Positions 12,307-48,543 are shown, numbered from the stretch's first letter. The stretch: 64,000 nt of DNA from Eledone cirrhosa (GCA_964016885.1 CAXHJY010001162.1:34729-98728); one strand, 5' to 3'. The notes: a model not told the origin generated them from the sequence alone. Translations and numbers: made by a program.

Positions 12307-12377
12307 TATTCTATCTGATGAAAACGCAAATGTTATTGCATGATGATATTTGTTTTTGAAATGCGCATAATAAAATA
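12307..12377 (+). ncRNA. Minimal type I hammerhead ribozyme (PLE-associated)
   Basis: Stem I TATTCTAT/ATAAAATA (1 mismatch); CTGATGA at 12315; ~16-bp stem II; GAAA-T-GCGC-A-TA. Predicted cleavage after 12369. Confidence 0.8.
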
Positions 12378-12919
12378 CATGGAACTCTTTTAACCATCTT
12401 TTGATCTTATATATTATTATTTATACTCCAGTCCTACAAACTGTAGAGTGCTACTTATCCGATATCTGCATTGCTTTATTATACTACAATAAAAATCACC
12501 TCCTACATATATATATATATATATATATATATATATATACATGTGTGTATATATATATATATATATACATACAAATAACATACAAGATTAAATATACGAG
12601 TGACTTTGGAGAAATGACTATTCATAGAGACAAATGTAGGGTTAGAACTTGTGATTGGAAAGCGAACGTCCTATTGTAGTGATATAACTAAGATAGAACA
12701 TGCATTGTGCGTATGTATATGTATGTATGCAACTAAGACCATCAATTGCGCTTACCTGTAGTTAAATACATACAGAGAACCATAGCCATCCACGAAACCA
12801 CTCGATTTCAGACACCATACCATACAATGTTTTTCCAATTGGACCCCTATCTTGCATTAAACAAACTGCTAATGTATGTGCAAACTTTAAAGAGCTACAC
12901 ACACACACACAGATAGGTA

Positions 12920-13070
12920 GAGAGAGAGAGTGAGAGAGAGAGAGAGAGAGAGAGAGAGAGAGAGAGAGAGAGAGAGAGAGAGAGAGAGAGAGAGAGAGAG
13001 AGTGATGGAGAGAGAAAGAGAGAGAGAGAGAGAGAGAGAGAGAGAGAGAGAGAGAGAGAGAGAGAGAGAG
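12920..13070. repeat. (GA)n microsatellite
   Basis: Directly visible. Confidence 0.95.
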
Positions 13071-13074
13071 AATG

Positions 13075-13360
13075 AAGGTGCGCGATCTAGTGTTCAGGTC
13101 TTTGGGGTTCTTGGTCGTAATTGTGTGAGTTCAATTCTCCAACGACCGGGCGACGTATTGTGTCCTTCAGCTGGACAATTTATTTTCACGCGCTGCGCTA
13201 CAAACAGAAGCTGGGATTTAACCCTAAACCTGCAATTTAACCCTAAATTAGTACCCCAAGGAGGTGTCCCTCGCCCGCAACAACACCTTGACGTGGCTTG
13301 CGTGAGGGAGAGAAACCTTTCGGGTGCAAACCCATGTTAAGTCACAACGGAAGAGGGACT
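13075..13360 (+). mobile_element. SINE family B-related copy with distinct 3' region
   Basis: GAAGGTGCG head, GAGTTCAATTCTC B-box and TGTGTCCTTCAGC core. Confidence 0.55.
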
Positions 13361-13380
13361 TGTATTATTAGTTTTAAAAT

Positions 13381-13570
13381 GGCGATGGATTGGCAGTAGC
13401 GGTAGAGGGTCCGACACCATGCTTTGACGCATAGAGTTACGGCCTTTGCTATTCTGAGTTCAAATCCCGCCGAGGTTAACTTTGCCTTTTATCCTTACCG
13501 GGGTCGATAAAATAAAGTACCAGTAATGCACTGGGTAATTGCTGGCCTTGTGCCAAAAGTAGAAACAATT
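13381..13570 (+). mobile_element. SINE family A
   Basis: Full-length match to the family consensus seen in this window. Confidence 0.9.
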
Positions 13571-13938
13571 ATTATTTTTAAAGGAGAGAGAGAGAGACCA
13601 GGCAGTCAAGAACAACATAATTAATGTTTTTTCCCAGACTTCCTATATTCGGCATTTGCTATTTGTTCTCTGCTTGATTATATGATCTTGGTAGTTTCTA
13701 GGAGAAATGTTTAGTGTGTAACTATCGATAGAAGAAGCAGATTGTATGTATAAGAAGGTTCAGTAGTTCAGTAGATTACCAATAACAGGAAAATGACATC
13801 AGAGAAACTGAATATGTACAGAAGACAGAAAAACTTTTTTTTAATTGTTGTTTAGTCCTGAACTAGCAGACTTATATTCAAATGTGGTCTAGCAGGACTA
13901 AACAAAACGTTGTTGTTACAGATAGCATTATTGTTGCC

Positions 13939-14117
13939 TGGCAGTATTGCTAGAGGGTCGGACGCCATGCTTTGACGTATAGAGTTACGGCCCTTGCCAT
14001 TCTGAGTTCAAATCCTGCCAAGGTTAACTTTGCCTTTCATCCTTACGGGGTCGATAAAATAAAGTACCAGTAATGCACTGGGTATGTGCTGGCCTTGTGC
14101 CTAACGTAGAAACAATT
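13939..14117 (+). mobile_element. SINE family A
   Basis: Match to the family consensus. Confidence 0.9.
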
Positions 14118-15730
14118 ATTGTTGCCTGTTGTTGTTTTTGTTGTTGATGCAGCCACAGACGTTGTTTTTGTTTTCGAAATCAGAAGGCTGCGTTTTGAAT
14201 CGTGTTTGTAAATTTTGAAGAAGATTGTGCGTTCGAAAAATTTGTTCGTTAAAGAAAGTTGTGTTTGGAGAATGCATTATTGTTTTTCATAGAATCTGCT
14301 TTTTTTTAAAAACGTTCTTTTTTTTTAGAAAGTTTATTTTCATGTATGTATGTTTTCTTATATTATCGGAAAGTTGCATCAGAAAATACATAAGAAGTGA
14401 ATGTTCTTTTTTTTTTTATCGATATCAGAAGGTTGCTTACGTTCGAAACGTCAGGTTCATCAATTATAGCAGGTCCTATTCTATACTAAGATGGATAGTG
14501 ATGTTGTGGTGTTGATTCGGTTGTGTGTACTCACTTGTGGATTGCTCAGTAGTGTGGTCACTGATGTGTAGAGTGTAGGTGAAGGAAAATTGATGTGCCT
14601 GATACAGTGTGACCAGAGATTGCGGATGTGGAAGTAAGTGAGTGGCAGTGTTCATTATGATGATTCATGATGTGATGATTCTTTGGGTAAGGTATGCATG
14701 TTTGTTTGAAAAGGTATTATTAAAATTGTGTTTACCAAACTTCTGTTGATGGAATGAATTTCGCTGGCCTAGCTGAGATAGATAGATACATAGATAGATA
14801 GATAGATAGATAGATAGATAGATAGATAGATAGATAGATAGATAGAGAGAGAGAGATAGAGAGAGGGGGGAGAGCGAGAGAACGAGAGAGAACTTCGTTA
14901 TGAAGTCTGCAACTACTTGGATTGACTGGGAGCAGACTAAGGGCAACGAGATACACAACCACCCGTAATTGCATGAGTAAATATGTATCTATGTATGTAT
15001 GATATGGGAATATATATATATATATAATTTCTTTTAATATATATATAAACGGAAAAAAATGAAACGAAATTTCCTTTCTCACTCTTAGTACGGCTGTTAC
15101 TTAAATATAAGTATGTATACGTACATATATATATGTATACAGACGTACAGTAGTATGTATATATATACATACATGCACACATATATATATATGTACGTAT
15201 GGATTCACCGAACATTTATTATAATGCTCGGTGTGTTTGTAAACAAACATCCCGAATTAAGCCGTACAGTGTTTAGTAAACATCGTTGCCCTTTTGTTCA
15301 ACACTGACAAAGGAACGCTGTACTAGTTTCAAGCGTATTAGCTATCGCCAGCAACGTATACCTTCCTGCCAGATGATTGAACGTCTGAAAGTATATACTT
15401 TCCTTATACATATTAACGGCTGAGCAGCCTAATTTGCATATCAAGTGTGTTAATCGGCCGGGCCCACCGGAAACGATAAACGGAAAAAATGAAACGAAAT
15501 TTAATTTCTCACTCTTAGTACCGCTGTTACTTAAATATAAGTATGTATACGTACATACATATATGTATACAGACGTTCAGTAGTATGTATATATATATTT
15601 TGACTGTGTCAACATGTATTTATCTGAGTTTGATTATTTATACATAGACATACTTGAAAGTATTTTAAGGCGTATCATACGCTGTATTATACTAAGTACA
15701 ATTTACCACACCGTACTATATTGTGTTACA

Positions 15731-46789: not shown

Positions 46790-46975
46790 TGGTAAGGAAC
46801 CAGATGGACCATAACGCAGCAAAGTACTCAATACTTAGGGTAGTAGAGTGGGTAATAGGAACGAGTATGACCCCGACGGCTGAGCTCAAGCCGTTTCGAC
46901 GGCTAATTTTTAGTCCAGAATTAGCCGTCGAAACGGCTTGAGCTCAGCCGTCGGGGTCCTACTCGTTCCTATATA
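46790..46975. mobile_element. Penelope-like terminal fragment P-A with fold-back palindrome
   Basis: Arms of ~53 bp (TAGGAACGAGTA.GACCCCGACGGCTGAGCTCAAGCCGTTTCGACGGCTAATT and its reverse complement) around a 10-nt loop, with (TA)n flanks. Confidence 0.75.
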
Positions 46976-46989
46976 TATATATATATATA

Positions 46990-47233
46990 TATATATATAT
47001 ATATATATATCGACAGTCGATCGACAAGATCCCAGATCTCATTCGCTTAACAAGTGGGGTGGAGCTAGTCAAATCGGACCGAGGAAACAATGTTTCCATT
47101 GCTAATACTATCTGTCGGTCGCAAATCCAGGCAGAAGGAGTAACGTGAAATAAAGTGTCTTGCTCAAGGACATAACGCATTGCCCGGTCTGGGTTTCGAA
47201 ATCACAACCTCTAACCACTCAGCCACGCGCCTT
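46990..47233 (-). mobile_element. SINE family B, minus strand
   Basis: AAATAAAGTGTCTTGCTCAAGGAC and CTCTAACCACTCAGCCACGCGCCTTC are reverse complements of the family B core and head. Confidence 0.8.
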
Positions 47234-47285
47234 CACACACATACACACACACTCACACACACCACACATACACACACACACACAA

Positions 47286-47724
47286 AGTCCAGAAATAGCC
47301 TGAAACGACTTGAGCTCTGCCGCCGGAGTCTTGAACATTTTCCTATTACCCACTCTAGCACCCTAAGTATTGAGTACTCTGGTGCGTTATGGTCCACCTG
47401 GTTCCTTACCACACTTCTTTCGTTATATACACATATATATATATATATATTGGTAAAACGAAAATAAAATGCTGACAAATTGTTCCCAGTGAAAAATAGT
47501 TTAATTAGGAATAAGTAAAAATTAGTAATAAGAATTGGTTAGTATTCAGTTTTAGTTTTAAGTTTTTACCGGTTGCGCATTTCTAATGCTTTTCAAAAAT
47601 AATTTTGAGATAGAGCCCCCGGGATGTTTGCTCTAACTTATTACTAATTTTTACTTATTCCTAATTAAACTATTTTTCACTGGGAACAATTTGTCAGCAT
47701 TTTCTTTTCCTTTTACCAATATAT
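47286..47724. mobile_element. Composite P-A + (TA)n + P-B Penelope-like fragments, with P-B forming an ~87-bp inverted repeat
   Basis: Colinear with 38999-39330. The arms 47446-47531 and 47638-47724 are reverse complements. Confidence 0.7.
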
Positions 47725-48323
47725 CACAACTCGTGTGTTACACCTCTATTCTTTTAAATATATATATATATATATTAAAGAGTTAAATAAGATTCAATGA
47801 GTACATCAAAGAATGAGTTTTACAGTAGATTGGAAGCACTCTACAGAAAATAATTTTCCAGAGTTATTAATATAGAATTTATAAAATTAATAAATATAAA
47901 TAACCAGCAACTTTAAAAAAAACCTAAAATCTTGATTCTTCACCCTTAAAATAACATAAATTAAATATTTTGAAACTTAACCGTTTAGCTTTTGGGAAAA
48001 AAAAAAAAAAATCTCTTTCTGCATATATTACTCCTCTTTATCTTTCCCCCTCTTTAAATCCTCTTTCAGCGGCCCTCATGGACAGTTATAATTCATGAGA
48101 TATTTTCCTAGATAACCATAACTTGTAGTAACCCACATTTTAAAATCTCTATAGCTGTCACATTAAACAACGTTTTTCTTACTCATACATCTTCTATTGA
48201 ATTTATTACGTTTTCGCATTTTCTCATCATTAGGGTATAAATGTTGAGTTTTCTCTTAGGTTAATCACTACCTTGATTAAATCTTAACCATTTAACATCT
48301 CAGGGTATGTCATGTATCATTAT

Positions 48324-48376
48324 ATTTTGTCTGATGAGGACGTACTGTTGTACCTCCGAAATATGTATAATAAAAT
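48324..48376 (+). ncRNA. Minimal type I hammerhead ribozyme (PLE-associated)
   Basis: ATTTTGT-CTGATGA-GGACGTAC-tgtt-GTACCTCC-GAAA-T-ATGT-A-TA-ATAAAAT. Predicted cleavage after 48369. Confidence 0.85.
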
Positions 48377-48482
48377 TTAATTGATCAAAAGAACATCTAA
48401 TTTATTAATATTTGTATTTTAATATATATATATATAATCAATGATATTAAATAAATGGAAACTATATTTATAAAACCATATT

Positions 48483-48543
48483 TATTTTATTATATATATT
48501 TCAAGGGTACCAAAAACTTTGCTACGTTTCATCAGATAAAATA
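48483..48543 (-). ncRNA. Minimal hammerhead ribozyme, same family as 17511
   Basis: Minus strand TATTTTAT-CTGATGA-aacgtagcaaagtttttggtaccctt-GAAA-T-ATAT-A-TA-ATAAAATA. Stem II is weakened. Confidence 0.7.

Follow-up and report, generated by a model that had tools for sequence, protein, structure and literature searches.

Type I hammerhead ribozyme motifs at the 3′ ends of truncated, (TA)n-sited repeats in Eledone cirrhosa, most likely dead copies of Hydra-clade Penelope-like elements

A 64,000-nucleotide stretch of the Eledone cirrhosa genome (GCA_964016885.1 CAXHJY010001162.1:34729-98728; here called the window) contains, between positions 12,307 and 48,543, eight motifs that resemble hammerhead ribozymes, and it may be asked whether these motifs are genuine, what kind of element carries them and how they might act. 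Ribozymes of this class, their association with Penelope-like elements (PLEs) and one octopus example have been published previously, the example being Hydra-1_oBim, a hammerhead listed for an Octopus bimaculoides PLE (Craig et al. 2021, PMC8557442, in the parts consulted). The motifs can be explained with considerable confidence as type I hammerheads at the 3′ ends of 5′-truncated repeats sited on (TA)n, most likely dead copies of Hydra-clade PLEs.

The eight hammerhead motifs are genuine. The CUGANGA...GAAA...UH cores described in an earlier note on this DNA are present at all eight places, follow the type I order in each and are mixed in orientation (C3 at 12315+, 17519+, 18526-, 19764+, 31139-, 31217+, 48331+ and 48535-; the earlier coordinates mark the outer edge of helix I). 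Bare CUGANGA cores are in mild excess (29 versus 21.9 ± 4.7). A structural descriptor, composed post hoc with the hits already known and consisting of the core, helix II of at least 4 bp, a closing helix III, UH and helix I of at least 5 bp, has six matches, whereas 300 local dinucleotide shuffles average 0.053 matches and never exceed 1; equally good folds are not as frequent in shuffled DNA. The motifs that fail the descriptor, 31139- and 48535-, are decayed copies. As an outside control, none of 117 metagenome matches to the group-1 pattern (see below) pairs in both helix I and helix II, and no true relative was recognized among these loci, which come from 13 of the 64 parts of the collection. 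Rfam hammerhead models were missing from the 150 of 185 matches listed, and gave nothing at E ≤ 10 on two sub-regions with three of the eight motifs. Self-cleavage is predicted from the sequence, at AUA or GUA in all eight motifs.

About six families had been counted previously; six sequence types are indeed present, but they belong to only two lineages. Group 1 (12315, 17519, 18526, 48331 and 48535) has a 2-bp helix III, an even palindrome and a pyrimidine mismatch within helix II, and group 2 (19764, 31139 and 31217) has a 3-bp helix III. The motifs and the repeats around them are arranged as follows.

11058..11089, minus strand: an extra, true minimal hammerhead, with a 4-nt palindrome as helix III and a helix I of 2 bp
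12035-12186: SINE interrupting the inverted arm of B
12191..12310: 120-nt inverted repeat (88% self-complement), the inverted 5′-truncated arm of B
12307..12377, plus strand: hammerhead B, group 1; C3 12315, predicted cut after 12369
12415..12506, plus strand: tail of B, then (TA)n; RCTC..GAGY-RCT hairpin at 12425-12452
16593..16661, minus strand: A3, inverted family-A arm without tail, truncated within helix II and abutting (TA)46; 68 of 69 nt identical to A1
16661..16768, plus strand: remnant of a Hydra-clade GIY-YIG endonuclease C-terminus, then a stop; N.R.EL.S.CRH motif at 16703
17511..17572, plus strand: hammerhead A1, group 1; C3 17519, predicted cut after 17564
17615..17710, plus strand: tail of A1, about 95 nt, then (TA)n; hairpin motif at 17625-17648
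18327-18595: element C, flanked by a (TA)n array on each side
18327..18425, minus strand: tail of C, with hairpin motif
18477..18531, minus strand: hammerhead C, group 1; C3 18526, predicted cut after 18482
19730-19858: element D, tail-less
19756..19829, plus strand: hammerhead D, group 2; C3 19764, predicted cut after 19821
31086..31146, minus strand: hammerhead E-, group 2, with a helix III mismatch, in a tail-less inverted arm ending at 31057 on (TA)30; the E arms are identical at 115 of 121 positions
31210..31270, plus strand: hammerhead E+, group 2; C3 31217, predicted cut after 31263
31300..31366, plus strand: tail of E+, 67 nt, with hairpin motif
47776..47873, minus strand: 98-nt tail of element F, inverted; shares homology with the tail of A1 (0 of 500 shuffles score as well)
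48324..48376, plus strand: hammerhead F, group 1; C3 48331, predicted cut after 48369, tail-less end at 48424
48483..48543, minus strand: hammerhead A2, group 1, with decayed helix II, in a tail-less element at 48438-48596

Pairing is retained among the variants of a family seen in the reads, and core bases are untouched by the 40 best-supported of 188 variants. In group 1, helix II covaries (the first three pairs are AAG/CUU, GGA/UCC, GGU/ACC or AAA/UUU) around a retained C.C or C.U mismatch. Individual copies carry defects: one helix III pair is broken in 31139-, helix I of 12315 is weak (3 bp, a mismatch and 4 bp), and helix II of 48535- has a 1-nt deletion and a mismatch, the paired form being found in most reads of that family (an extra base behind 48526 in 896 of 1522, and the pairing base at 48522 in 797 of 1052 and 426 of 463). 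Upon free folding, helices I and II form in register in four of the eight motifs (17519, 18526, 19764 and 31217), with z-scores from -2.8 to +0.06 over the eight. All eight have a helix III of 2-3 bp; the earlier description of a 2-bp stem with a tetraloop applies to five, while the other three have 3 bp and a triloop. The term ‘minimal’ is therefore not appropriate by the definition of Cervera and De la Pena (2014, PMC4209133, in the parts consulted), whose min-HHRs are devoid of helix III; only 11087- fits. These min-HHRs also conserve G10.1-C11.1, the typical though not absolute closing pair of type I hammerheads, which is present in two of the eight motifs, the others having A-U (three), U-A (two) or, in 19764, an A.C mismatch. 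Closing helix III has a computed cost of 1.8-2.9 kcal/mol in group 1 and a computed gain of 2.4-2.5 kcal/mol in D and E+. Cleavage as dimers, proposed earlier for all, is plausible for group 1, but monomeric folding is predicted for group 2.

All nine arms of groups 1 and 2 terminate on a TA run, either directly, 36-55 nt from the ribozyme, or behind a tail, 103-155 nt from it, and exactly one arm is tailed in each of seven scorable head-to-head insertions (B was excluded since its second arm is cut by a SINE). Tails measure 67-98 nt and have a hairpin in common, whose motif lies 59-98 nt past the cut in all four tailed arms among these nine ends; about 0.8% of random starts have the motif at +60 to +130. 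Homology links the family-A tail to the tails of B and F; the E+ tail has no significant alignment to group-1 tails outside the hairpin motif, and the hairpins are individually not stable (z -1.2 to +0.6). Copies are steeply 5′-truncated. For F, depth in run X1 rises about 600-fold from 48046 to the ribozyme, reads show at least eight distinct junctions and no fixed 5′ end, and joints at 47873-48414/48421 connect opposite strands. Of ten family-H arms, four start at one identical point and two more start 1-2 nt away from it; the point lies 58 nt ahead of the short end, as far as the cut is from the end in group 1. The window contains no tandem arrays holding ribozymes and no direct partial tandems (pseudo-LTRs) around an ORF. 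An apparent inverted tail piece beside A2 (48597-48660) was rejected, as 194 of 500 shuffles score equally.

Evidence for the parent element comes from family A. At 16703, N.R.EL.S.CRH agrees at eight of eight motif positions, versus a maximum of six in 20 shuffles, and matches by eye the C-terminal CxH extension of Hydra-clade endonucleases in the supplement of Craig et al. 2021, whose Fig. S7, in the part consulted, has the extension in nine Hydra rows and in none of nine Penelope, Nematis and Neptune rows (PMC8557442). The insertion at 16593-17710 keeps an endonuclease C-terminus, so family A, at a minimum, is the end that truncation has left of a coding element; the roughly 750 nt by which the remnant is tied to A1 contain a long (TA)n and may hold other insertions. 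The earlier description of the elements as ORF-less stands in that no PLE reverse transcriptase or N-terminal GIY-YIG sequence was found in the window, but not for this C-terminus. Hydra-clade PLEs further have a reverse transcriptase with RWK and DKT motifs, a CxCX5C linker, no CCHH and a single ORF of less than 3 kb, features to which none of the window copies extends. Families B, C, D, E and F yielded no coding remnant; Pfam searches returned LINE-type RVT_1 fragments elsewhere and nothing PLE-like for 150 of 349 ORFs, and nothing in 18 frames near the ribozymes of four elements. A database search with the 16607-16765 frame produced four candidates, none scoring, and searches with the body of F found no relative, so that the clade call is based on the 12-residue motif, the ribozyme shape and the tail motif, all compared by eye with the Craig 2021 supplement. 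A reading of 47785-47870 as the decayed thumb domain of a PLE was rejected, because the stretch is the inverted F tail and has no protein relative (phmmer, no match over 1.84 billion proteins; word search, 0 of 214 candidates).

The resemblance to the Hydra clade extends to the (TA)n target, marked for 26 of the 27 listed Hydra families, the hammerhead 36-47 or 88-116 nt from the 3′ end, the inverted 5′-truncated arms, the C-terminal CxH extension, the hairpin motif at the ends and, for group 2, the 7-nt odd-palindrome helix III. Hydra consensus ends counted by eye in the parts consulted of PMC8557442 measure 36, 46 or 47 nt, or 88, 97 or 116 nt after the cut, and by eye the long ones bear the hairpin motif; the main text has no match for ‘hairpin’ or ‘stem-loop’. 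For PLEs in general, tails of 30-40 bp are quoted, as opposed to 67-98 nt here, in line with the long Hydra ends. Compared by eye, 14 nt of the Hydra-2_Ajap 3′ tail are identical to the E+ tail at 31319-31332; the tail motif also opens Hydra-1_Ajap, which fits tandem read-through. The helix III of Hydra-1_oBim is 1 nt apart from that of E, whereas no window family resembles by eye the non-ribozyme part of the Hydra-1_Obim 3′ end. Group 1 differs from the Hydra ribozymes in the portion of File S2 compared, in which helix III inserts are 7 or 8 nt rather than 6 nt and its longer helix II and fixed pyrimidine mismatch are absent. Metazoan PLE hammerheads (PMC4209133, in part) likewise form many sequence families per genome, mostly singles from truncated PLEs, with opposite-strand pairs 100-700 bp apart, a palindromic helix III with a dimer model, and a U3-A8 variant. 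In the Anolis Poseidon element PAc (Frangieh et al. 2024, PMC11167929, in part), the target is also AT-rich, both strands are primed and the hammerhead lies upstream of two internal reverse-transcription start sites bounding a tail; PAc, however, belongs to another clade, its ORF begins within the hammerhead and cleavage required protein. The PAc hammerhead was dispensable for in vitro insertion, and RNA data failed to show in vivo cutting before transposition.

The reads point to some 10^4-10^5 dispersed copies of each family (single contigs of depth 7-19 served as the single-copy baseline, with bin 47988-48016, a skipped poly-A stretch, excluded). Elements cover 7.0% of the window versus 6.83% Penelope-like DNA genome-wide in the common octopus, and their density here is ordinary. 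Run X7 (organism D) gave one partial contig and hence no cross-species support. Greater depth on the 3′ side of A in run X4 was dismissed as a sign of cleavage, because ends are not visible in contigs and run X1, which is DNA-like, behaves likewise.

Other origins can be weighed against these data. Some families (C, D, F and H) might not be truncated coding elements but short non-autonomous ones that have 5′ ends of their own and depend on Hydra-clade proteins for mobilisation in trans. This would agree with the recurrent start of family H and with the missing coding remnants of B to F; it appears unlikely, given the smooth truncation gradient and many junctions of F, and the coding sequence and shared tail of A. 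The even 6-nt insert of group 1, missing from the Hydra table, could point to a different PLE clade with a (TA)n target, for instance Neptune, which like Naiad favours microsatellites, but the Hydra-specific CxH extension beside A3/A1 and the tail motif common to Hydra consensus ends make such a source improbable. Non-LTR retrozymes share type I hammerheads, low GC and a PLE link (Cervera and De la Pena 2020, PMC7229834; Li et al., bioRxiv 10.64898/2026.07.22.740005; both in part), and the 2026 preprint has retrozymes derived from PLEs. They are, however, tandem repeats of 150-450 bp with circular RNA, while window copies are dispersed, single or head-to-head. One head-to-tail joint over the F ribozyme (48372 to 48306; runs X1 and X4) would suit spread through circular RNA monomers, but its depth is 138 versus about 500,000 at the same place, 97% of X21 reads continue into unlike sequence and no ribozyme lies within a tandem array, so that the suggested retrozyme affinity is abandoned and this route is given very little weight.

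Retention of one or more copies by the host to cut the pre-mRNA of an SLC2A13-like gene is highly improbable: exon 1 (33296-33760) is the only one in the window, which probably places F in intron 1 on the sense strand, but F is an unremarkable diverged copy among the many thousands of its family, it has no dimer partner, its mismatch is repaired in other copies and the eight motifs are of mixed orientation. Chance folding in AT-rich DNA could be argued from the small excess of bare cores, the modest free-folding z-scores and the missing Rfam matches; it is counted as refuted, with a negligible residual probability, by the descriptor and the outside control, and by covariation and a fixed position within repeated elements. 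The link of these type I hammerheads to PLEs and (TA)n, drawn by the earlier note, is supported.

If the repeats are dead Hydra-clade copies, the parent RNA, by analogy with the Anolis Poseidon element, might be ordered as ORF, 3′UTR, hammerhead and the start of the next tandem copy, and the element protein would nick both strands of the (TA)n target. Reverse transcription from two internal sites would leave one tailed and one tail-less arm, with most cDNAs ending within about 200 nt, and the hammerhead would trim the tandem precursor. Group 1 could cut as a dimer through an 8-nt palindrome, or with protein help, and group 2 probably as a monomer. Dimer cleavage was reportedly described by Lunse et al. 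in 2017. The window copies themselves are likely passengers, because none has a same-family, same-strand partner nearby. It is a tentative and rather doubtful proposal that the RCTC..GAGY-RCT hairpin serves as a conserved Hydra-clade reverse transcriptase binding or start signal, from corals and sea cucumbers to octopus, and that family H consists of retro-copies of the hammerhead 3′ cleavage product; if true, family H would be genomic proof of in vivo Penelope ribozyme cutting before transposition. The leads are the tail hairpin, as a candidate start signal, and a tenth family with a fixed 5′ end, which may record in vivo cleavage. The window also supplies natural monomer-type and dimer-type variants from one clade.

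These data suggest that the families are new within a known kind of element and that the ribozyme variants look undescribed; Repbase and the O. vulgaris repeat library may have unlabelled consensuses. Craig 2021 was the only paper found on octopus or cephalopod hammerheads, and neither ‘ribozyme’ nor ‘hammerhead’ occurs in a 2026 O. vulgaris repeat annotation or its supplement. In the common octopus, a sizeable share of the 6.83% Penelope-like DNA might be ribozyme-bearing stumps of 100-300 nt missed by Rfam models, probably in tens to hundreds of thousands of copies. Three further motifs were absent from the earlier note: at 11513- lies a core with the U3-A8 variation, at 40789- one that has decayed, and at 11087- the true minimal hammerhead. 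The last sits in an element (10969-11221) of a separate PLE family, of which a second 3′-end fragment is located at 38609-38683.

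All eight hammerhead cores claimed by the earlier note are present in the window. They belong to two lineages, whose members are listed here by the handle of the repeat copy that bears each ribozyme and by the position of C3.

Group 1 (2-bp helix III): B 12315, A1 17519, C 18526, F 48331, A2 48535
Group 2 (3-bp helix III and triloop): D 19764, E 31139/31217

A structural descriptor, drawn up after the hits had been seen, has 6 matches in the window against a mean of 0.053 and a maximum of 1 in 300 local dinucleotide shuffles; folds of this quality are thus not equally frequent by chance. 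The two cores missed by the descriptor belong to damaged copies. In 31139-, which repeats 31217+ in inverted orientation (115/121 nt identical), one helix III pair is broken; 48535-, which is 92% identical to 17519+, carries one deletion and one mismatch in helix II, both of which are repaired in the majority of family reads. In free folding, the margin of the hammerheads over shuffles is modest only. Rfam hammerhead models gave no match among the 150 of 185 matches listed, nor at E<=10 on two sub-regions holding 3 of the 8 motifs, and in 13 of 64 parts of a metagenome collection none of the 117 matches to the group-1 sequence pattern pairs in both helices.

The elements that carry these cores end in two ways. 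In the short ends (A2, A3, D, E- and F) a TA run is reached 36-55 nt past the predicted cut, the distance for A3 being taken from its alignment, and in the long ends (A1, B, C and E+) the TA run is reached after 103-155 nt, the extra 3' stretch forming a tail. The motif RCTC-N13-35-GAGY-RCT occurs in 4/4 long ends and 0/5 short ends and forms a small hairpin, whose paired arms covary between ACTC/GAGT and GCTC/GAGC. It recurs in the inverted tail of F (47776-47873) and in an additional family, H, where four arms carry it; 9 of the motif's 10 distinct matches across the window fall within these elements, 33-62 nt ahead of a TA run. Exactly one arm is tailed in each of the seven head-to-head insertions in which both arms could be scored (A3/A1, E, F and four of H). 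Single-armed copies stand outside this count, as does B, whose second arm is interrupted by a SINE. At 19866-20128 there is a 218-nt inverted repeat without a hammerhead. It is extended on one side only, by about 45 nt, ahead of poly-A and (TA)43, and resembles a two-armed insertion of PLE type from a family that lacks ribozymes. More inverted-repeat elements lie within or close to TA runs at 39147-39330, 47451-47718 and 59318-59443.

In group 1, the 8 nt of helix III are self-complementary, and helix II opens with three pairs, followed by a C.C or C.U mismatch and further pairs; the sequence of the first three pairs varies among families while pairing is kept. Tail alignments as good as those observed were obtained in 0/500 shuffles for A1-B, 0/500 for A1-F and 3/500 for A1-C, and reads connect the 5' half of F with the 3' half of A. 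Since A1, B and F have tails that are alike beyond chance and F-A joined reads exist, these families are related. In group 2, D and E have a 3' end of 36-38 nt in common. Calculated energies put the cost of closing helix III at 1.8-2.9 kcal/mol for group 1, and for D and E+ closure is favourable by about 2.5; on this basis group 1 is predicted to be of the dimer type and group 2 of the monomer type. An A-related subfamily at 48443-48512, represented by more than 11,000 reads in X21, has another tail and a different, longer helix II that is apparently still paired.

The elements are most likely new families of Hydra-clade PLE ends, as judged from sequence features. The motif N.R.EL.S.CRH closes an ORF in frame at 16661-16768, adjoining the inverted arm A3, and is matched at 8/8 positions, against 6 at most in 20 shuffles; a database search gave no confirmation of this protein remnant. 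Craig et al. 2021 (PMC8557442, Fig. S7) show this C-terminal extension in their Hydra rows, and it is missing from those of Penelope, Nematis and Neptune. The Hydra hammerheads in File S2 of the same paper have a helix III insert of 7 or 8 nt, that of Hydra-1_oBim being one base apart from that of E, and the group-1 shape is absent among them. Six Hydra consensus sequences run 36, 46, 47, 88, 97 or 116 nt from cut to end (counted by eye). Compared by eye, the hairpin motif appears in all three long consensus ends, one of them a variant; Hydra-1_Ajap opens with it, and Hydra-2_Ajap has 14 nt in common with the E+ tail. No PLE RT was found in the window by Pfam on 150 of 349 ORFs and on 18 frames beside the ribozymes, and database searches with the F body returned no coding sequence. 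The group-1 variant and the tail hairpin were not found in the octopus-hammerhead and Hydra-PLE literature searched, although repeat libraries may already contain the sequences.

As described, PLE insertions are 5'-truncated and frequently combine an inverted arm with a tail at one end (PMC8557442). The PAc protein of the Anolis Poseidon element is reported to cleave and extend both strands of AT-rich DNA, starting at two internal sites, which bound the tail; its hammerhead cleaves only with protein and is dispensable for insertion in vitro (PMC11167929). The findings in the window concern positions, pairing, truncation, two 3'-end classes, one tail per insertion and one coding remnant. The copies may have been made by the same cycle as PAc, in which case the tail would be the beginning of the next tandem copy, the tail hairpin might belong to the start signal, and the ribozyme would trim the tandem precursor. 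Same-family ribozymes lie on opposite strands at these loci, and therefore cis dimers are impossible there. A transcript across E would form a 120-bp hairpin, and the copies in the window are probably inert.

The interval 47785-48632 is matched by 10,465 contigs in the DNA-like run X1 and by 31,349 of 12.5 million reads in X21, of which 97% continue into unlike sequence. Summed depth in X1 reaches about 0.5 million at F and 0.26-0.63 million over the A core (7-19 for single contigs). This suggests that each family has 10^4-10^5 copies; as depth is not copy number, the estimate holds only to an order of magnitude. Depth drops about 600-fold over 300 nt upstream of F. A rare head-to-tail joint across the F ribozyme, from 48372 to 48306 (depth 138, unit about 69 nt; X1 and X4), makes the duplication of 48306-48372 a possible natural cis dimer. 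Mapped elements amount to 4,462 bp, or 7.0% of the window; the cluster is not exceptional, because this is close to the 6.83% of Penelope-like DNA given for the O. vulgaris genome in the supplement of PMC13282606.

Further elements lie in the window.

19420-19533, 38818-39080, 39445-39632, 46790-46969, 47286-47423, 58434-58493: family H, with ten short head-to-head arms in (TA)n
10969-11221 (-), position 11087: true minimal hammerhead, helix I of 2 bp only, AATAAA downstream
38609-38683: second copy of the preceding element, last 75 nt only, between TA runs
11305-11620 (-), position 11513: U3-A8 core variant, helix II present, helix III palindromic, helix I lacking
40745-40800 (-), C3 40789: decayed hammerhead-like core, helix I wobble-rich, helix II broken

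The ten arms of family H have a common 40-nt end counted from an internal GAAA, which is flanked by alternative 5-bp pairings. All six tail-less arms end at exactly +40 and the tailed arms at +108 to +122; the 5' start falls on one base 18 nt ahead of GAAA in 4/10 arms and within 1-2 nt of it in two more. CUGANGA is found in 0/10 arms. The arms of family H could represent the 3' half of a long-helix-III hammerhead, or else what remains 3' of a cleavage at the fixed start. The element at 10969-11221 and its second copy probably come from another PLE clade. Pfam found no match in about 500 nt upstream of the 11513 variant.

The window is animal DNA rich in microsatellites, with numerous SINE copies and the following features.

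33296-33760 (+): first coding exon of a proton myo-inositol cotransporter (SLC2A13-like), by protein match
20605-21362 and 26392-26700: LINE-type RT fragments, by Pfam
53047-54235: tandem array, 108-nt unit, 11 copies, 98%
50257-51728: tandem array, 45/92/137-nt units
42741-44636: tandem array, 29/41-nt units

Over 155 residues the exon matches, at 100% identity, a proton myo-inositol cotransporter cluster named Octopus vulgaris; the next match is at 68%, and on this comparison the window was assigned to Octopus. The remainder of the protein lies outside the window, which makes 33761-64000 its probable first intron, and F and A2 would then probably lie inside it. The decayed LINE-type reverse-transcriptase regions at 20128-22600 (-) and 26392-27300 (-) are unrelated to the ribozymes. 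None of the three tandem arrays contains hammerheads, and the flanks of the 108-nt unit are related to 58714-59043.
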